The notes below the pieces were generated by a model. It did no database searches. It was not told the DNA's origin and worked only from the letters and a program-made list of their open reading frames with translations. The position numbers and the translations under genes were made by a program. A stretch of 64,000 nucleotides of DNA from Chloroflexota bacterium. GTDB lineage: Bacteria > Chloroflexota > UBA11872 > VXNJ01. Positions within the stretch are counted from its first letter, which is position 1, and the number at the start of each line of letters is the position of its first letter. Below, piece after piece: positions 41,086-49,228 of this stretch. Location: NCBI GenBank assembly GCA_965261345.1, contig OZ253449.1, positions 1,888,001 through 1,952,000 of the forward strand. Direction: 5' to 3'.

Positions 41086-42453
41086 ATGCGTTCAGCGCTA
41101 GCTGCCAGCGCCGCCAGGCTGGCTCGGGCGCTGGCGCGCCGCCTGGGGCGCGGCGGATCGGCCTTGCCGGGCCTGGTTGCTCACTCCTTGGCCCCGGACC
41201 TGCTTTATGATTTGGCCGCAGGTTTGCCGCGTGGCTGCGTGCTAATTAGCGGCACCAACGGCAAGACCACGACCGCAGGCCTTAGCGCTTCGGTAATTGG
41301 CCGCTGTGGATTCGAGCCGATCAGCAACCCCTCGGGGTCCAACTTGGCGCGTGGTGTGCTGGCCCACCTGCTTGAGCATGCCGACTGGGCCGGGCGCCCG
41401 CGTTGGGGTCAATCGGCGATCGGTGTATTCGAACTGGACGAGGCCCAGTTGATTGCTTCGCTGGTCCGCCTGCGTCCGCGGGTTCTGGCGCTCACCAACC
41501 TATTTCGTGACCAGTTAGATCGCTACGGCGAGCTGGATTCACTCAGCGCCGGCATAACCGCATCGCTGGGGCAATGCACGACCGCCCCGGTCCTGGTTGT
41601 AAATGTCGATGATCCGGTGCTCTGCCACATCGCCAGCGGCCACCACGGGATGGTGATCGGCTACGGCCTGGAACCGCCGCGGGATGGCCGCCAGCCCGAC
41701 GAATGGGCCGACTCGACGCTCTGCCCGCGTTGTGGTGGGGATCTTGGCTACGACGGTGTGGTCTTCTCCCACCTGGGCCGGTGGGCCTGTCCGGCCTGCG
41801 GGTTCGCCCGCCCCGAACCTCACGTCCGGGCCCGCAGCGACCAGGCCGGCGGCGACCTGGTTGATCTAAAGGTCAGCCTGGGCCAGGGGACCGTGACCCT
41901 CCAGAGCCAGCTGAGCGGGACGTACAACGCCTACAACCTGCTCTGTGCGCTGGCGGTTGCCAGTGCCCTCTCGCTCGCCCCGGGTGCGGCCGCGCGGGCG
42001 CTAAGTCAATCGGCTCCGAGTTTTGGACGCTCCGAACGGATAGCCCTAGGGACCAGGGAAGTGACCCTGATGCTGATGAAGAACCCGACCGGGGCCAACG
42101 AGCTGGCTCGCATGCTGGCCGACCGGCGCGAGGATTTTCTGATCCTGCTAAACGACCAGGCCGCCGACGGGGAGGATGTCTCCTGGATCTGGGACGTTAA
42201 TTTTTCAGTGCTTGATCCGAAGCGACTCTTCGTCGGCGGGCGACGAGCGGCCGACATGGCGCTGAGGCTCAAATACGCCGGGTTGCAAACTGACCTTGCG
42301 GTGGAGGGTCCGGTGGCAAAATCACTCGATGCCGCCTTGGATGCGGGCGGCGATCGTCTGCTGATATTGGCAACCTATACCGCAATGCTGCAAATCCGGA
42401 GAGAGCTGGTCAAACGCGGCGCCGCCAGAGAGTATTGGCAGGCGACCGAATGA
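41086..42453 (+). CDS. murT: Lipid II isoglutaminyl synthase subunit MurT
   Basis: GTNGKTTT, NLFRDQLDRYGE, CPRC..CPAC, KNP, DVSWIWD, TYTAML. Confidence 0.93.
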   Translation: MRSALAASAARLARALARRLGRGGSALPGLVAHSLAPDLLYDLAAGLPRGCVLISGTNGKTTTAGLSASVIGRCGFEPISNPSGSNLARGVLAHLLEHADWAGRPRWGQSAIGVFELDEAQLIASLVRLRPRVLALTNLFRDQLDRYGELDSLSAGITASLGQCTTAPVLVVNVDDPVLCHIASGHHGMVIGYGLEPPRDGRQPDEWADSTLCPRCGGDLGYDGVVFSHLGRWACPACGFARPEPHVRARSDQAGGDLVDLKVSLGQGTVTLQSQLSGTYNAYNLLCALAVASALSLAPGAAARALSQSAPSFGRSERIALGTREVTLMLMKNPTGANELARMLADRREDFLILLNDQAADGEDVSWIWDVNFSVLDPKRLFVGGRRAADMALRLKYAGLQTDLAVEGPVAKSLDAALDAGGDRLLILATYTAMLQIRRELVKRGAAREYWQATE

Positions 42454-43205
42454 TCCGTATCGGCCACCTTTTACCCGAACTGATGAACATTTACGCCGAT
42501 CGCGGCAACGTCGAATGCCTGCTAAAACGGTGCCAATGGCGCTCAATACCTGCCCAAAAAGTCGCGCTGCGGGCGGGGTGCCGCTTTGGTCCGGCCGATG
42601 TTGATATCGTATTGATCGGCGGCGGCCAGGATCGCCAGCAGCAGTTGGCCAGCCGGGCGCTGGCCGGACCGACCGGGGCAAGCCTGCGAGCCTGCGTCGC
42701 GGACGGGGTGGTGCTGTTGGCGGTCTGCGGCGGGTATCAGCTGATGGGCCACAGCTACCGTGATTTCGACGGCCGGGTCATCGCCGGGATGGGGCTGCTT
42801 GAACTTGAAACGGTCCATCCCGGGCCCGGCACCGACCGCTGTATCGGAAACGTTGCGGTCGATTGGATCGGGCAGTCGCTGATCGGGTTTGAAAATCACG
42901 GCGGGCGCACCTACCTGGCCGCCGGGCAAGCACCGCTCGGTCGGGTCCAATATGGGCACGGCAACAATTCCGAAGATGGCACCGAAGGCGCCCGCAGCGG
43001 GAACGTGTTCGGAACCTACCTGCACGGATCGTTGCTGCCCAAGAATCCCCGGTTTGCCGACCACCTGCTCGGATTGGCGCTGGCCCGCAACGGTTGCCGA
43101 TCCGAATTGACGCCGCTCGACGACCGCGCGGAGTGGGCCGCCCATGCCTCGGCCCAGGCTTTAATCAGCTGGCAGCAACCGGCCAAACAGCGGCGCAGCA
43201 ATTGA
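42450..43205 (+). CDS. gatD: Glutamine amidotransferase GatD
   Basis: GGGQD, VCGGYQ, GFENHGG, YLHGSLLPKNP; ATGA overlap with murT. Confidence 0.93.
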   Translation: MIRIGHLLPELMNIYADRGNVECLLKRCQWRSIPAQKVALRAGCRFGPADVDIVLIGGGQDRQQQLASRALAGPTGASLRACVADGVVLLAVCGGYQLMGHSYRDFDGRVIAGMGLLELETVHPGPGTDRCIGNVAVDWIGQSLIGFENHGGRTYLAAGQAPLGRVQYGHGNNSEDGTEGARSGNVFGTYLHGSLLPKNPRFADHLLGLALARNGCRSELTPLDDRAEWAAHASAQALISWQQPAKQRRSN

Positions 43206-43229
43206 CGTGAGGCATAGCCAAGATAAAAT
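43202..43229 (+). promoter_or_regulatory. Candidate sigma70 promoter for the flavoprotein-Rieske/cyt b operon
   Basis: TTGACG-N16-TAAAAT, ending 41 bp before the ATG at 43271. Confidence 0.6.
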
Positions 43230-43270
43230 CCGCAGGTTAGCCTGCCCGACGACGGATTTGCCCTTCACCT

Positions 43271-45049
43271 ATGGCGCGATCTGATAGCGCCGGCGCCGTT
43301 GGCGCTGTCACCGAGACCGGCCTGCGGGTAACCCTGCCCGGACTCGATTACTACCGCGAAAACATCGCCTGCCAGGCCGCATGTCCGGCCGGCACCGACG
43401 CGCGTGGTTTAGTTACCGCAATTGCCCGTGGCGAGTACGCGGCGGCCTGGGACATTGCCCGTCAGGCCAATCCCTTCGCAGCGGTTTGCGGAAGCGCCTG
43501 TTCAGCACCGTGTGAGGCCAGTTGTCGTCGCGGAGCGATCGATTCGCCGATCGCCATCGCCGCGCTGCAGCGATTTGCCGCCGGGGCCGCCGCCGCCGCG
43601 CGTCCGGCCGACTTGGCATCGCCGGCGCGGGCGCCGGAAAACTCGCGCACCGCCGGATCGATCTTTGCGCTGAGCCAGTATCGCCGCCGCTTAGCGGATC
43701 AGCGTAAGGAAGGGGCCCGAGTTGCGGTCATCGGATCAGGACCGGCCGGACTGACCGCGGCTCACGACCTTTCGCTGCTCGGACACGCGGTTGACATATT
43801 TGAAGCATCCGATCGCCCGGGCGGAATGATGCTGCGCGGAATACCCGAGTACGTTCTGCCGCGCTCGGAGGTTGCGGCCGAAATCGCCGCCGTCCTCGAA
43901 ATGCCGGGGTTGCGGATCGAATACGGCCGCGAACTGGGCGCCGGTCTAGACCTGGACGAATTGTGCCGGTCCTATGATTTAGTGATCCTGGCGATTGGCG
44001 ATCCCGACCAGTGGCGCACCGGCAATGGATCCAACCTGCTTTCGGTCCCCGAATTGGTCGATGGTTTCCGGCCGGGATCGGCGGTTGAGCTGGTTGGTCA
44101 AATGGTGGTAGTCGCCGGCGGCTGCGACCGCTCGATAGCCGCCGCCCGGACCGCCGCCCGGATCCAGCGCAATGCTGGCCAACCGGCGATGGTAACCATG
44201 GTGGCCGAAAGGGTTTTCGGTTCGTCGGCCGCCGCCAGCGAGGCTGCACGCGAGGGCGTCCGTATTGAAACCGGGTTCTTGCCCGAGCCGATCGTTGAAC
44301 GCGGCGACGGCTTTTTAGTCCCTCTCGGCCTCGGTCGGGAGAGCATTCTGGCCGATGTCGTGGTGTTGCCGATGGGCAGCCCGCAGTTGTCGGCCCGTCC
44401 CTCAATCGACCTTTTGTCCCTGCCCGCCAACGTGTTCATCGCCGCATCGCCATCGGCCGATGAGGGCATCGTGTATGCGGTAAAGGCAGGGCACGACGCG
44501 GCCCTTGCGGCCGAGTCGCATATCCAGGGCGCAATGGTCGCGATGCGGCGGTCAGGAAATATGCATTCGTTGGCCGCGAGTGATTTTCAGGTGCCCGGTT
44601 ACCTGCAGCTACCGCCTCAGGAATCAGTCCAGCGGCCGCCCGCGCGGCGCGGTCCGTTCGAACAACCCGACCTGGGTTTCAGCGAAGCCGAGGCCCGGGC
44701 CGAGGCCCAGCGGTGCCTCAAATGCAACGTAAATACGGTATTTGAAAGCCCGCGCTGCATTACCTGCGGTGATTGTGTGGATGTCTGTCCGCACCAATGC
44801 CTGGACCTAGTTGCCCCGGCCGCCGTTTCGGGCCACGGGCTAGACGCGGTGCTGGCCGGCGAATTTGGCGCCGGATTGGATTTTCTGCGGCGTGCGGACG
44901 GGGCCTCCGACGCGGTGTTGATCGTCAAGGACGAGTCGACCTGCACCAATTGCGGGCTGTGCGTAGAGGTTTGTCCGACCGACGTAATCGGGTTCGAGTG
45001 GTTCGGGTTTTCTGAAGAACTCGAATTGCTGCCGGGTCCGGTTGCCTGA
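43271..45049 (+). CDS. GltD/NfnB/DsrL-like Fe-S flavoprotein with C-terminal 2[4Fe-4S] ferredoxin
   Basis: CQAACP, CGSACSAPCEASC, GSGPAG, GIPEY, EAQRCLKC, CITCGDCVDVCP, CTNCGLCVEVCP. Confidence 0.88.
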   Translation: MARSDSAGAVGAVTETGLRVTLPGLDYYRENIACQAACPAGTDARGLVTAIARGEYAAAWDIARQANPFAAVCGSACSAPCEASCRRGAIDSPIAIAALQRFAAGAAAAARPADLASPARAPENSRTAGSIFALSQYRRRLADQRKEGARVAVIGSGPAGLTAAHDLSLLGHAVDIFEASDRPGGMMLRGIPEYVLPRSEVAAEIAAVLEMPGLRIEYGRELGAGLDLDELCRSYDLVILAIGDPDQWRTGNGSNLLSVPELVDGFRPGSAVELVGQMVVVAGGCDRSIAAARTAARIQRNAGQPAMVTMVAERVFGSSAAASEAAREGVRIETGFLPEPIVERGDGFLVPLGLGRESILADVVVLPMGSPQLSARPSIDLLSLPANVFIAASPSADEGIVYAVKAGHDAALAAESHIQGAMVAMRRSGNMHSLAASDFQVPGYLQLPPQESVQRPPARRGPFEQPDLGFSEAEARAEAQRCLKCNVNTVFESPRCITCGDCVDVCPHQCLDLVAPAAVSGHGLDAVLAGEFGAGLDFLRRADGASDAVLIVKDESTCTNCGLCVEVCPTDVIGFEWFGFSEELELLPGPVA

Positions 45050-45169
45050 TGCCGCTTCCGCCAACCCCCGCGCCGTCCTCCGCTTTGAGAAAATGGTGGC
45101 GGAACTAGGCATGGTAACTCCACAATTTGAACCCCGTACCTTTAGCAAGCTAAGGACTCGATCGCGCTG

Positions 45170-45871
45170 ATGGATTCGCACGGAACCGCTTCGGCGCAAT
45201 CTAACGATTCGCTAAGCGATGGATACACTGCCCGCTCGCGGGCGGTGTCGCAAAACTTCTTCCTGGCGCTGCACCCGGTGCAGGTTCGGCGCGCGAGCAT
45301 TCGCCCGTTCTACTCGCTCGGCCTGGGCTTGCTCTCGGCCTACAGCTTGGTGATCATGTTCGCTACCGGAATCCTGCTGATGTTCCATTACGTCCCGCAG
45401 GTGGATGCCGCCTACGCGAGCATGGTCCGGCTCGAAACCGACGTATTCCTCGGTGGCCTGATCAAAAACCTGCATTTTGTTTCCGGTCACGCCCTGCTCG
45501 TGTTCTCGCTCGCCCACCTATTTAGGGCCTTTTTCACCGGGGCCTATGCCGGGCGATCCGGCAACTGGGTGGTGGGAGTGATCATGTTGCTGATCGCGCT
45601 GCTAACTGTCGCAACCGGTTACGTGTTGCCCTGGGATCAGGGTGCCTACTGGGTGACCGTCGGAGCATCCGAAATTGTTGCCCAGGGTCCGATCCTGGGC
45701 GAATGGGTGCAACTTATAGTTTTCGGTGGCGACGATGTCGGACAGGCCACGCTAACCCGTTTCTACACCCTGCATTTCCTGGTCGGGCCGCTGCTCTTGC
45801 TGGCTTTGTCGGGCCTTCATGTTTTCCTGATTCGAAGCGCCGGCGGCCTGGCCGCCGGCGGCGACCAATAA
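45170..45871 (+). CDS. petB: Cytochrome b, N-terminal (b6-like split type)
   Basis: ATGILLMFHY, NLH and AHLFR heme ligands, NWVVG, TGYVLPWDQ, TLTRFYTLH-x14-H. Confidence 0.92.
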   Translation: MDSHGTASAQSNDSLSDGYTARSRAVSQNFFLALHPVQVRRASIRPFYSLGLGLLSAYSLVIMFATGILLMFHYVPQVDAAYASMVRLETDVFLGGLIKNLHFVSGHALLVFSLAHLFRAFFTGAYAGRSGNWVVGVIMLLIALLTVATGYVLPWDQGAYWVTVGASEIVAQGPILGEWVQLIVFGGDDVGQATLTRFYTLHFLVGPLLLLALSGLHVFLIRSAGGLAAGGDQ

Positions 45872-45890
45872 CTAAAGCATTGGAGCTCCT

Positions 45891-46727
45891 TTGAACGTTA
45901 GCCAGGTGGACGCCTCGGGCAAGACCTACGGCCTGATGGGTTTGGCCCGCGGCCAGACGCGCCGAACGCAACCGGCCGCCGGCAAAGTTCTTTCCTACCC
46001 TTCGGTGCTGTTGTCTGAATTGCTGCTGTTTTTGGGCTTGTTGCTGGTGCTATTGGTCATCGCCGCGTTCGCTTCCCCGCAGTTGGGTGCCCCGATCAAC
46101 GTTGCCGCCCCCGACAATCCGGCTCCGGTCCCCTGGTTTACGGCCGATATTTCCGAACTCAACCTGCGGTTCAATCCAGTTTTTGCCGGAATAATCATCC
46201 CGTCGCTGTGGGTGGTTGGATTGCTGGCGGTACCGTTCATCGCCCCCGACCCGGCCGCCCCCGGCACCTGGTTCGGCGGTCGGAGTCTCAGATTCGCGCT
46301 AGCAGGTGCCGTCTGCTTCGGCGGATTGCTGGCCCTCTACGTGATATTTGATCCGGCCGGCCGTCTTTTCCATGAAATAAATTCAAGCCTGAATCTGACC
46401 CAATTGGCGGACGGACAGTCGCCGAGCTGGTGGCCGACCGATATCCTGTTCTTCGGATTCCCCGATCTGACCGAATTCTCCTCGCTGCTCTGGGCCGGCC
46501 TGCTGCCGTTTGTCATTCTGGTTGCAGTCGGGTTCGCGGCGATCCTGGTGGCGCGCCTGGGGGTCAATGCCAATCGTCACGAATTGACGGTTCTGATATT
46601 TAGCGGCGTCTGGGCCGGGGCCTTCGCGCTCATGTTCATCTACGGCGCGATGCGCGGGCCGGACCTGGTCCTCTATGCTCCCTGGGACGTTCCGGCGACC
46701 CTCCCGGCCACCTTCGGCGCCGGTTGA
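45891..46727 (+). CDS. Subunit IV-like (C-terminal cytochrome b) membrane protein, extended
   Basis: DNPAPVPWF at the PEWY-equivalent position, AGIIIP..AVPFI, multiple TM helices, operon position. Confidence 0.78.
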   Translation: MNVSQVDASGKTYGLMGLARGQTRRTQPAAGKVLSYPSVLLSELLLFLGLLLVLLVIAAFASPQLGAPINVAAPDNPAPVPWFTADISELNLRFNPVFAGIIIPSLWVVGLLAVPFIAPDPAAPGTWFGGRSLRFALAGAVCFGGLLALYVIFDPAGRLFHEINSSLNLTQLADGQSPSWWPTDILFFGFPDLTEFSSLLWAGLLPFVILVAVGFAAILVARLGVNANRHELTVLIFSGVWAGAFALMFIYGAMRGPDLVLYAPWDVPATLPATFGAG

Positions 46728-46784
46728 ACCGGCCGAATTTTGTTCCGATGATCAAACCTGCACCGGCATATATTTAGCACCGCA

Positions 46785-47273
46785 ATGCCCGCCCGCCAAC
46801 CAGGACATTTGGAAATTGCCCGCCGTGGCCTGCTCAAGGGAGCCTTCGGTTCCGTGGTCGGGGTCCTGGCGCCGCTGGCATCGGTCGCTGCCGGGGTCGC
46901 TTACCTCCTGCCGGCGCGCGCGACCGAGGAGTTATGGATCGATGCCGGACAGCCGGGCGAATTCGCCGAAGGCGAGGTCAAATTCATCCCTTCGGCTGGA
47001 ATATTCGTCTCGCGCAGCGACCGTGGGTTCATCGCCCTCAGTCAGGACTGCACCCATCTTGGTTGCAGGGTGCCGTTCGATCCACAGGAGCGCCAATTCC
47101 GCTGCCCTTGCCACGGGTCGGTCTATGACGAATATGGCGACAATCTGACCGGCCCGGCGCCGCGACCGCTGGCGATCCATCCGTTGCGCCTCGAGGGCGG
47201 TCACGTTCTGGTTTCAACCCTTGCTCGTCCGCGCGAGCAGGTTAGCGAGGTTCAATTTAAGCCCTATGCCTAA
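46785..47273 (+). CDS. petC: Rieske [2Fe-2S] protein
   Basis: Tat-like ARRGLLK plus TM helix, CTHLGC and [15 protein letters not shown]. Confidence 0.93.
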
Positions 47274-47760
47274 CCGAACCGAATTCCAAGTTGCCGCTGC
47301 GGCATCGCTTGCGGCCCTCATCGTGTTGGTGCTGGCTGCGGTATTGGTAACTGAGGGTCTGCGTCACGATTCGGCGCGCGACCACTATCGCACCTATCTG
47401 GAAGCTCCCGAATTGAGCGAATTCGGGATTTTTTCAATAACCGCCGCCGCGCCGATTGAGGAAGTGATCGTTGAGCGTTCGCCCGAGTTGGAGGCGATAT
47501 ACGACCTGTTTATTGAAAAGGGCTGCACCGGCTGCCACATGGTTGACGGAATCCCCGAGGCGATCGGTGACACCGGGCCCGGCCTGAACGGATTCGCCAC
47601 CCGTGCAATGATCGGCGAAACGCTGGAAATGGGACGCGATAACCTGGCCCTCTGGCTCACCGACCCGCCTTCACACAAGCCCGACACGTTGATGCCGGCC
47701 TTGGGGCTGTCAGCGGAAGACATCGATCTGCTAATCGATTGGCTCTTTACTCTCACCTGA
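47266..47760 (+). CDS. Membrane-anchored monoheme cytochrome c
   Basis: N-terminal TM helix, CTGCH, GPGL, KPDTLMP (Met ligand); ATG at 47266. Confidence 0.88.
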
Positions 47761-49068
47761 TTCCGGGAAGAGCCCTAAAAGGTCATCATAGGTCTCGCGC
47801 CGGCGGGTGATCCGGGCCGCTCCATCGGCCACAAATACCACCGCCGGGCGCAGCGCCAGGTTGTAGTTGGAGGACATGGCCATCCCGTAGGCGCCCGATG
47901 TTGCCGCCGCCAGGATGTCGCCGCGTCGCAGCTGGGGAAGCTCAAGGTCCTTAAAGAGGATGTCGCCGGACTCACAGTAGCGCCCGGCAACGGTCACCGT
48001 CGAGCGGACGGAGGTCCCGCGGCGATTGGCCAGGACGGCGGTGTAGCGGGCCCCGTAGAGCGCCGGGCGGATGTTGTCGGCCATGCCGCCGTCGACCGCC
48101 GCGTAGGTGCGCACACCGGGGATCGACTTGATGGATCCCACCGTGTAGAGTGCGATCCCGGAGCGGGCGATGATCGATCGTCCCGGTTCGACCACCAGCA
48201 GCGGGCGGCGACCATCCGGCAACGCCGACCTGACCACCTTGCCCAGGGCGCCCATCAACGCCCCGGGATCCAGACCGGCATCGTCTTCGGTGTAGCGCAC
48301 GCCGGCGCCCCCACCGGGTGAGATCACGCTGGGAAAAAAGCCGGTCCGTTGCTCCATCGCCAGGGCAAAGTCGATCAGCTTGCGGGCGTTGTCCTCAAGC
48401 GGCTGCGCATCAAAAATCTGTGAACCAATGTGGGCGTGATAGCCGAGCAGCTCGATTCCCCGGTTGGCAAGTGCCGCAATGACGGCTTCCTGGGCCTGCC
48501 CGGTTGCGATCGCGATTCCAAATTTGGAATCAATTTCACCGGTGCGGATGTATTCATGGGTGTGGGCCGAAATTCCTGGAGTTAGCCGCAACAGGGTCTT
48601 GGCCCGACGCCCTCCGGCGGCAGCGATTTCTCCGATCAACTCCAAGTCGTCGCGGCCGTCGGCCACGAAATGGCCGATACCGGCCGCCAGCGCCAGCTCA
48701 ATTTCGCCGCGCAGCTTGTTATTGCCGTGAAAAGTTATTAGCTCGGGATCAACGCCGGCCGCCAGGGCCGCTTTGATCTCACCGCCGCTGACGCAATCGA
48801 CGCCCAGGCCGGCGGCGGCGGCGACTCCCAGCAGGTGCAGATCTACGTAGGCCTTGGCCGCGTAGATCACCCGCGAATTTGGATAGGCGGCCGCTAGCGG
48901 ATCTACGTAGGACCGACAGTCGGAAACCACCTGAGCCTCGTCGTAAACATAGAGTGGGCTGCCAAAGCGCGCCAACAGTTCCCCGACGCGGCAACCGCCG
49001 ATCTCGAGATGACCGTCCCGGTCACGCAGGCATGAACCGGGAAAGAGTGCCAATTCGCGATCGTCCAT
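47731..49068 (-). CDS. lysA: Diaminopimelate decarboxylase
   Basis: GSPLYVYD, YAAKA, SGGE, HGNNK, SKFG, HIGSQI, EPGRS, CESGD, GAYG..MSSNYN. Confidence 0.95.
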   Translation of the reverse strand: MDDRELALFPGSCLRDRDGHLEIGGCRVGELLARFGSPLYVYDEAQVVSDCRSYVDPLAAAYPNSRVIYAAKAYVDLHLLGVAAAAGLGVDCVSGGEIKAALAAGVDPELITFHGNNKLRGEIELALAAGIGHFVADGRDDLELIGEIAAAGGRRAKTLLRLTPGISAHTHEYIRTGEIDSKFGIAIATGQAQEAVIAALANRGIELLGYHAHIGSQIFDAQPLEDNARKLIDFALAMEQRTGFFPSVISPGGGAGVRYTEDDAGLDPGALMGALGKVVRSALPDGRRPLLVVEPGRSIIARSGIALYTVGSIKSIPGVRTYAAVDGGMADNIRPALYGARYTAVLANRRGTSVRSTVTVAGRYCESGDILFKDLELPQLRRGDILAAATSGAYGMAMSSNYNLALRPAVVFVADGAARITRRRETYDDLLGLFPESGESKEPID

Positions 49069-49228
49069 CAATGCCTCGATGTTGCTAATCGCTAATTTTC
49101 CGGCGCGGCGGATGAGCAATTGTTACGAGCGAACCGGTTGCGTCGTAATCTTTCCGAGACCGGCCGGAGGCCCAATCTGCGCTTGGTTGCCGCCGACCGG
49201 CGCGGGCTATTGCTGCAAGCCGGAAGCC

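Follow-up and report, generated by a model that had tools for sequence, protein, structure and literature searches.

What is an iron-sulfur (Fe-S) flavoprotein doing at the head of a Rieske/cytochrome b gene cluster? The question is raised by a locus in a 64,000-nucleotide stretch of a Chloroflexota genome (contig OZ253449.1 of assembly GCA_965261345.1, positions 1,888,001 to 1,952,000; this whole stretch is called the window here), in which five plus-strand open reading frames (ORFs) fill the interval from murT-gatD to lysA, as read from the ORF list and from Pfam and NCBIfam searches. Bioenergetics has yet to settle the role of flavoprotein-bearing Rieske/cytochrome b complexes; the leading proposal, that they make NAD(P)H by quinol-driven electron bifurcation, is based on models and on measured redox potentials of isolated soluble Rieske domains of anammox bacteria. 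An original prediction, made from the letters of the window, had placed the five genes listed below on the plus strand, where all of them were found, and had offered them as a candidate new system. The analysis described here leads elsewhere: the cluster is a conserved variant of a known, biochemically unsolved complex type rather than a new system. It probably encodes a menaquinol-oxidising Rieske/cytochrome b complex with an extra cytoplasmic GltD/NfnB-like Fe-S flavoprotein, co-inherited with cytochrome b. What appears to be new is the state of that flavoprotein, whose NAD(P)H Rossmann motif reads as degenerate in the family, with the domain shortened and its GD motif gone in the genus and the Fe-S cysteines all kept.

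43271-45049, + strand: Fe-S flavoprotein, 592 aa; Fer4_20 (PF14691) at 60.6 bits, FAD Rossmann fold, C-terminal 4Fe-4S dicluster
45170-45871, + strand: cytochrome b6-type subunit with four helices, 233 aa; PF00033 at 126.5 bits against a cut-off of 27.2
45891-46727, + strand: extended subunit IV-like protein (putative C-terminal half of cytochrome b), 278 aa; five predicted transmembrane (TM) helices
46785-47273, + strand: Rieske [2Fe-2S] protein, 162 aa; Tat motif RRGLLKG, boxes CTHLGC and CPCHGSVY
TTG 47221 or ATG 47266 to 47760, + strand: monoheme cytochrome c, membrane-anchored; CTGCH, PF00034

The flavoprotein gene is conserved beside cytochrome b, so that a refutation named in the original prediction itself does not apply, and the neighbourhood survey finds the adjacency recurring among close and distant genomes. 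Among the 40 relatives searched, a flavoprotein ortholog was found in 13, namely all six of the window's genus (g1), the one genome of g2, all five of g3 and the one of g4, and it was absent from g5 (0/5) and from the sister family (0/22). A cytochrome b match follows the flavoprotein match by 86-143 nt, on the same strand, in all 13 of the relatives that have it. Where the loci were followed downstream (G003, G002, G007, G013 and G009), full-length subunit IV, the Rieske protein, a monoheme cytochrome c and convergent lysA came after in five out of five. For more distant loci, a pattern scan that took a single genome for each species gave 80 flavoprotein-like loci, nine of which have Rieske and cytochrome b genes directly downstream. 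These nine, counted as coming from five other phyla, lie in Acidobacteriota (L014, L015), Planctomycetota (L016), Actinomycetota (L022), Eisenbacteria (L045), Limnocylindria (L019, L029, L052) and Chloroflexia (L038), and gene order and cytochrome c partner differ among them. Of 301 genomes sampled from the window's phylum, 32 matched the flavoprotein at E <= 1e-30; five of these were examined, with frames of 657-731 aa, and cytochrome b stands just downstream in three (G163, G094, G114).

Cytochrome b phylogeny agrees with the gene neighbourhoods. The tree comprised 49 rows, being 16 flavoprotein-linked proteins, two orphans from g5 and 31 database proteins of unknown context, with L006, L007, L009, L010 and L012 excluded because they were truncated or nearly identical to others. 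A single 28-row clade with support of 100/99 takes in all 16 linked rows and is separate from the b6-like, long cytochrome b and orphan rows. The flavoprotein tree (16 rows) returns the same major clades, that is (g3,(g2,g1)), a Limnocylindria/Chloroflexia group divided internally in the same way, and the pair from Acidobacteriota. By these comparisons of sequence, the flavoprotein has been inherited together with cytochrome b.

The two orphans come from g5, a genus of the same family, where a 181-aa b6-like cytochrome b lies beside a chromate transporter (L099:4666-5211 in G010; L100 in G018). No Rieske gene and no flavoprotein ortholog were found at that place, and this cytochrome b was rejected as a candidate bc complex, as an orphan b6-like gene by a chromate transporter.

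The flavoprotein itself is predicted to comprise an N-terminal GltD/DPD-type Fe-S domain, an FAD Rossmann fold with the motif GSGPAG, a shortened NAD(P)H domain and a C-terminal 2x[4Fe-4S] ferredoxin. The Fer4_20 Fe-S domain and the FAD GxGxxG fold are features of the GltD/NfnB/DPD N-terminal family, and hydropathy reveals no hydrophobic segment, from which the protein is therefore taken to be cytoplasmic. Its top NCBIfam match is PRK12771 (NF009410), at 233 bits against a cut-off of 516; no curated NCBIfam cut-off (PRK12771, GltD, NfnB-like) is reached, the other matches being still further below. The predicted structure is best matched by NfnABC.

The two Rossmann motifs of this protein are differently preserved. 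An intact FAD motif, GxGxxG, is present in all 21 linked flavoproteins, and its Glu is kept, with Asp instead in three Limnocylindria/Chloroflexia loci. The second, NAD(P)H motif is a canonical GGGxxA in all nine orthologs from outside the family, followed by YRR in the Limnocylindria/Chloroflexia loci, and is degenerate in all 12 family members, where it becomes G[D/G]DDSA in g3, GGAQDA in g2 and GG[C/G][D/N]RS in g1; the window's protein reads AGGCDRS where GGGxxA is expected. Between this motif and the C-terminal FAD helix g1 has 128 aa, g2 147 and g3 168-169, against 164-210 in the other orthologs; as for the GD motif, g3 still has it, g2 has AGQ in its place and g1 has lost it by deletion. 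Across 103 sequences C73, C77, C81 and C85 are invariant and C34 and C38 nearly so, and eleven C-terminal cysteines (482, 485, 496, 499, 502, 506, 510, 558, 561, 564 and 568) are likewise invariant, three of which (482, 485 and 510) go beyond a standard two-cluster ferredoxin. Identity within g1 follows the same pattern, at 80% for the N-terminal Fe-S domain, 77% for the ferredoxin, 70% for the FAD part and 65% for the remnant NAD(P)H domain. A functional NAD(P)-binding site has probably been lost in the window's flavoprotein; because motif and domain are both degenerate, the protein is an implausible NAD(P) oxidoreductase in this lineage, the kind of subunit that the original prediction had cited from anammox clusters. 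In the co-inherited five-gene unit, the Fe-S wire is under constraint and the NAD(P)H site not.

By analogy, the cluster is of the same kind as Kuste4569-4574 and Kustd1480-1485 of Kuenenia stuttgartiensis, the flavoprotein and cytochrome b being likened by description. The Kuenenia Rieske/cytochrome b complexes, which include a putative NAD(P) oxidoreductase, are the subject of detailed models; 9rk4 (Kuste4569) and 9rk3 (Kustd1480) are Rieske proteins of these flavoprotein-bearing complexes, the nearest fold of Kuste4570 is NfnABC, and subunit IV has five helices instead of three (PMC12954380). Their subunits are reported to co-migrate, as cited in PMC12954380 and PMC5600118. The window's cluster shares with them a b6-like four-helix cytochrome b, the five-helix subunit IV, a menaquinone background, a cytoplasmic GltD-like Fe-S flavoprotein with a fold nearest NfnABC, and the Rieske signature CHGS(x)Y/F, their Rieske proteins being the nearest solved relatives of the window's. 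The latter (PF00355 at 43.4 bits) carries its Tat motif at residues 13-19, followed by a hydrophobic segment, and matches 9rk4 at 74 bits and 9rk3 at 59 bits, with the b6f Rieske proteins next at <=58. The analogy with anammox complexes drawn in the original prediction is thus upheld by the Rieske protein, by subunit IV and by the presence of a flavoprotein in the cluster. Box II is CHGS in all ten linked Rieske proteins, with Tyr in seven and Phe in three; the Ser/Tyr pair has been tied to high potential (PMC12954380), and its presence suggests a high potential for the window's protein.

The differences from Kuenenia are also clear. The window has a monoheme cytochrome c where Kuenenia has hexa- or octaheme cytochromes and an HAO-like protein, and, unlike the Kuenenia type, it has no heme cN cysteine, a putative Qo motif of VPWF, and the degenerate and shortened NAD(P)H domain. 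Its host is an aerobe with alternative complex III (ACIII), complex I and a heme-copper oxidase, whereas Kuenenia is an anammox autotroph. The cytochrome c (one CTGCH, PF00034 at 31.2 bits, one N-terminal TM helix) has a single CxxCH in five of five relatives as well; in other phyla the cytochrome c partners have 1, 2, 5, 7 or 8.

Associations of this sort have been described before. In Dibrova 2017 (PMC5600118, citing work of 2013), cytochrome b subfamily G is said to co-occur with large NAD(P)-binding Fe-S oxidoreductases, which sit inside planctomycete bc operons and are met "in many other cases". This co-occurrence, already in print, together with the modelled anammox complexes (PMC12954380), removes the claim to a new system. 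The window's cytochrome b probably belongs to subfamily G, and by its Qo motif and the tree described above (100/99) it appears to fall within the "APWY" clade of Kao & Hunte (2014, PMC4122944), which spans delta-Proteobacteria, Chloroflexi, Nitrospirales, Planctomycetes and Actinobacteria; the window's family differs from that clade in carrying a derived VPWF. A literature search for such complexes outside anammox bacteria returned only PMC12954380, and the available portions of the Nitrospina genome paper (PMC3578206) and of a 2026 review (PMC13053071) contain nothing on such a flavoprotein.

The cytochrome b6-type subunit has two bis-histidine heme sites, on helices B and D, with the pairs H102/H116 and H202/H217, the first pair invariant and the second nearly so in 22 sequences. 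Its closest solved relative is cyanobacterial b6 (119 bits), in which FYCLG aligns with FYSLG of the window, so that the heme cN cysteine is replaced by serine; among the 15 flavoprotein-linked loci read, that cysteine is present in just three. The N-terminal motif is NFFLALHPVQV in the window, with a histidine at H35, and NxFL[H/x]x[H/F/Y][P/S/V] across the clade. These 15 loci offer two places for histidine, two residues from each other, and fill one or both; it is at the second position only in the window, at the first only in Acidobacteriota and Actinomycetota, and at both in the rest. Subunit IV shows five hydropathy peaks, and five long helices appear in a low-confidence AF2 model (pLDDT 39); the putative Qo motif VPWF occupies residues 80-83, between helices 36-61 and 96-117. 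Neither a Pfam search (no match) nor a PDB profile search (0 matches) recognised this subunit. Its neighbours in Atlas carry PF00032 (scores 0.97, 0.94 and 0.92), and by tblastn it matches subunit IV or fused cytochrome b in five distant loci. The Qo motif is VPWF in the window's family and APWY in the eight distant linked loci where it was located. The want of a heme cN cysteine and the VPWF motif would, on these alignments, be new here.

A side observation concerns how these two subunits are encoded. Cytochrome b and subunit IV form a single frame of ~532 aa in four of the five g3 genomes (G008, G011, G013, G017) and are split in g1, g2 and g4, which looks like a fusion or fission event inside one family.

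Three other known systems resemble parts of the cluster. Like b6f and the Firmicute b6c complexes, it has cytochrome b split into b6 and subunit IV and an H-x14-H spacing in helix D, and, as given above, cyanobacterial b6 and then the b6f Rieske protein are close solved relatives. It differs from them in having no heme cN cysteine, five helices instead of three in subunit IV, VPWF instead of PEWY/PDWY, an extra cytoplasmic flavoprotein gene and no cytochrome f. The flavoprotein resembles the large GltD-like subunit of Bfu-type NfnABC/StnABC (9bov_A, 8oh5_C), NfnB, GltD and the DPD N-terminal region, at an identity of only 22-30%; unlike NfnABC/StnABC, its NAD(P)H site is degenerate and its partners are a membrane bc complex and not soluble bifurcating subunits. 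The Geobacter-type ExtP/ExtQ/ExtS families (NF040969-71) give the best NCBIfam match for cytochrome b and weak ones for subunit IV and cytochrome c, all below their cut-offs (ExtP 184/290, ExtQ 22.5/150, ExtS 21/100 bits), and the flavoprotein had no Ext-type match in NCBIfam.

The host genome (2.39 Mb, one contig) has one cytochrome b and one heme-copper oxidase; cytochrome bd was searched for in it and none was found. Outside the window it carries an ACIII operon of ActA-B1-B2-C/F-D-E. Complex I is complete, with NuoCD-G-H-I-J-L-M-N at one locus and NuoE-F at another, a 2-oxoacid:ferredoxin oxidoreductase is present, and there are two futalosine-pathway (MqnA/D-type) genes. Together, ACIII, complex I, the oxidase and the futalosine genes point to an aerobic menaquinone-type chain in which Rieske/cytochrome b is not the sole route from quinol to cytochrome c; the menaquinone user envisaged by the original prediction is thus what the organism looks like, and an aerobe besides. 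The idea that the cluster is the only complex III, suggested by the single cytochrome b, was rejected once the ACIII operon was found, and a specialised role for it beside ACIII, complex I and the 2-oxoacid:ferredoxin oxidoreductase is possible.

As to the details of these loci, the ACIII operon (L098:1620-9116, equal to G000:C1:1042620-1050116) encodes a multiheme ActA, ActB as a split molybdopterin-like subunit plus an Fe-S part, two NrfD-type membrane subunits, ActD (PF11821) and a monoheme ActE, and is followed by a thioredoxin-reductase-like flavoprotein. The two complex I loci (L107:6258-17328 and L108:4182-5945) are ~430 kb apart, and a 114-aa ORF with no Pfam match occupies the place expected for NuoK.

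How might such a complex work? Quinol would be oxidised at Qo, one electron passing through the Rieske protein and cytochrome c to the heme-copper oxidase and the other crossing the membrane by hemes bL and bH. That second electron would then leave, or be met, by way of a relay of roughly four Fe-S clusters within the flavoprotein, which is envisaged as docking on the n-side of the cytochrome b dimer and exchanging electrons with heme bH. Given the degenerate NAD(P)H site, the cytoplasmic partner is probably something other than conventionally bound NAD(P)(H); a one-electron carrier, for instance ferredoxin, may meet the protein at its flavin or its Fe-S clusters. If the reasoning of PMC12954380 is followed, a Rieske protein of high potential working on menaquinol would make the b branch very low in potential and so favour outward flow to a low-potential acceptor. 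A reductive output driven by quinol bifurcation is therefore our tentative choice of direction, at a confidence that falls somewhat short of even, with inward flow given less and a sizeable share assigned to neither. The fully specified version, a flavin/Fe-S wire free of NAD(P)H that links the low-potential b-heme branch of a menaquinol-bifurcating complex to a one-electron carrier such as ferredoxin, must be called decidedly unlikely as it stands.

Several observations weigh against this picture. The architecture of GltD plus ferredoxin appears not to be exclusive to cytochrome b clusters: at least eight loci in which the match reaches residue >=569 have it with no flanking cytochrome b (L020, L028, L030, L033, L054, L057, L058, L060), L047 and L048 end too early for the full architecture to be judged, and two of the five further phylum genomes (G231, G261) have flavoprotein-like genes but no cytochrome b. 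The contact between flavoprotein and cytochrome b is proposed from linkage and analogy. A complex prediction with two cytochrome b, two subunit IV (1-160) and flavoprotein residues 420-592 scored 0.02 and 0.08 against a mark of 0.32 and, run without controls, carries no weight either way. The loss of the NAD(P)H site is read from motifs, and one g1 member (L004) retains GGG. In Kuenenia an N-terminal histidine of cytochrome b (His43/His62, with His43 in Kuste4571) has been proposed to bind an extra inter-monomer heme b, and its putative counterpart has no single fixed position in the clade. A motif in the spacer before cytochrome b looks like an extended -10, separate from that of the flavoprotein. 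Finally, it is not obvious why a heterotroph that already has complex I should need to reduce low-potential carriers at the expense of quinol.

A rival reading has the same chain run backwards. The flavoprotein would then be a dehydrogenase head on a cytochrome b anchor, passing electrons from a cytoplasmic donor through its Fe-S clusters and heme bH to menaquinone at the n-side; the donor could be reduced ferredoxin here, and NAD(P)H in lineages with an intact site. Electrons would run downhill to menaquinone from either ferredoxin or NAD(P)H, a 2-oxoacid:ferredoxin oxidoreductase that reduces ferredoxin is encoded in the genome, and the ancestral role suggested by Dibrova (PMC5600118) is that of a four-helix cytochrome b as membrane anchor of a protruding oxidoreductase. 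However, with a complete NADH-oxidising complex I present this would be a wasteful parallel route, an argument also made for Kuenenia (PMC12954380), and the Ser/Tyr Rieske signature is more in keeping with a b chain of very low potential than with one that reduces quinone. Inward flow is accordingly held to be unlikely, if plausible enough to be weighed seriously, and the same holds for the dehydrogenase reading built on it.

It could also be that the flavoprotein is catalytically dead in the genus and retained for assembly or stability, leaving an ordinary Q cycle to run beside ACIII. The degenerate NAD(P)H motif, the shortened domain and the deleted GD motif would all fit a relic, as would the long stem branches of the flavoprotein tree (family 0.65 and genus 0.85, against 0.33 and 0.52 for cytochrome b). 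Yet all 17 Fe-S cysteines and the FAD GxGxxG are kept, and the Fe-S domains are the parts that vary least among members of the genus (80% and 77% identity, with even the remnant domain at 65%), which is the pattern of a working redox protein and makes a dead subunit quite improbable. It is very improbable that the flavoprotein is an unrelated soluble enzyme with its own substrate, lying beside cytochrome b through inherited gene order. In favour of this reading, the 120-nt spacer has a conserved -10-like motif, murT-gatD and lysA are syntenic family-wide so that gene order is stable anyway, and similar fusion proteins exist with no cytochrome b; against it, the adjacency is kept across six phyla despite rearranged Rieske/cytochrome b order and different cytochrome c partners, the two trees are congruent, and the homologous Kuenenia subunits are reported as co-migrating (PMC12954380, PMC5600118).

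The co-inherited flavoprotein and Rieske/cytochrome b complex, then, remains the preferred reading, and its interest lies in what the family offers. The window's cluster is a stripped-down version of the complex, with five genes, a monoheme cytochrome c and no heme cN cysteine, in a small aerobic genome where ACIII and complex I are encoded as well. Across the family the NAD(P)H domain disappears by degrees and every Fe-S ligand is kept, a natural series which suggests that selection preserved the wire and the flavin site and not the NAD(P)H site. The family is also simpler material for questions of docking, electron path and partner. If the wire free of NAD(P)H were real, it would constitute an oxygen-driven, quinol-based route to low-potential reductant in an aerobic heterotroph, with ACIII handling the bulk of the quinol.

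The genes on either side and the non-coding elements of the locus are as follows.

41086-43205, + strand: murT-gatD, peptidoglycan amidation; upstream neighbour, with a 65-nt gap to the flavoprotein gene
43202-43229, + strand: promoter-like TTGACG-N16-TAAAAT, 10/12 consensus matches; in the 65-nt gap after gatD
43222-43260, + strand: leader block ATAAAATCCGC[A/T]GGTTA, invariant in 6/6 genus genomes; holds the inverted repeat AAATCCG...CGGATTT and includes TAAAAT
45085-45096, + strand: spacer motif TTG[A/G]GAAAATGG, invariant in 6/6 genus genomes, the rest of the spacer being poorly conserved
47731-49119, - strand: lysA, convergent; overlaps the 3' end of the cytochrome c gene by 30 nt

Synteny of the neighbours extends to gatD upstream in 11 of 11 relative loci examined and to lysA downstream in five of five. 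The promoter put forward in the original prediction survives by half: the pattern is at its place and its -10-like TAAAAT is invariant in all six genus genomes, whereas the -35 TTGACG is conserved in none of five relatives, and a single occurrence of the pattern in 6 kb is not above chance, shuffled sequence giving 1.6 +/- 1.2. As the stem pairs of the leader inverted repeat are invariant, with no covariation, an RNA hairpin and a DNA operator are indistinguishable there. The leader block and the spacer motif are both -10-like, so the bc genes may have a promoter of their own besides read-through, which would not bear on whether the proteins work together. TTG[A/G]GAAAATGG has three copies in the genome, the other two at the start of an NhaA gene and beside an integrase/protease pair, and with two of three copies in unrelated contexts it was rejected as a respiratory regulon signal.

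The spacer between the flavoprotein and cytochrome b genes is 120 nt long (45050-45169). A hairpin that the original prediction had placed at ~45050-45110 folds no better than shuffled sequence (z -0.71; 48 of 200 shuffles fold as well), and it was rejected as a terminator, having no T-run and being unmarked in the terminator scan. Two terminator-like hairpins occur further along on the plus strand, one at 47406-47428 (a 9-bp stem and T6) within the cytochrome c coding region and a weaker one at 46719-46733, at the subunit IV stop and before the Rieske gene. Terminator-like sites number 11 in 6 kb, against 5.8 +/- 2.8 in shuffles.

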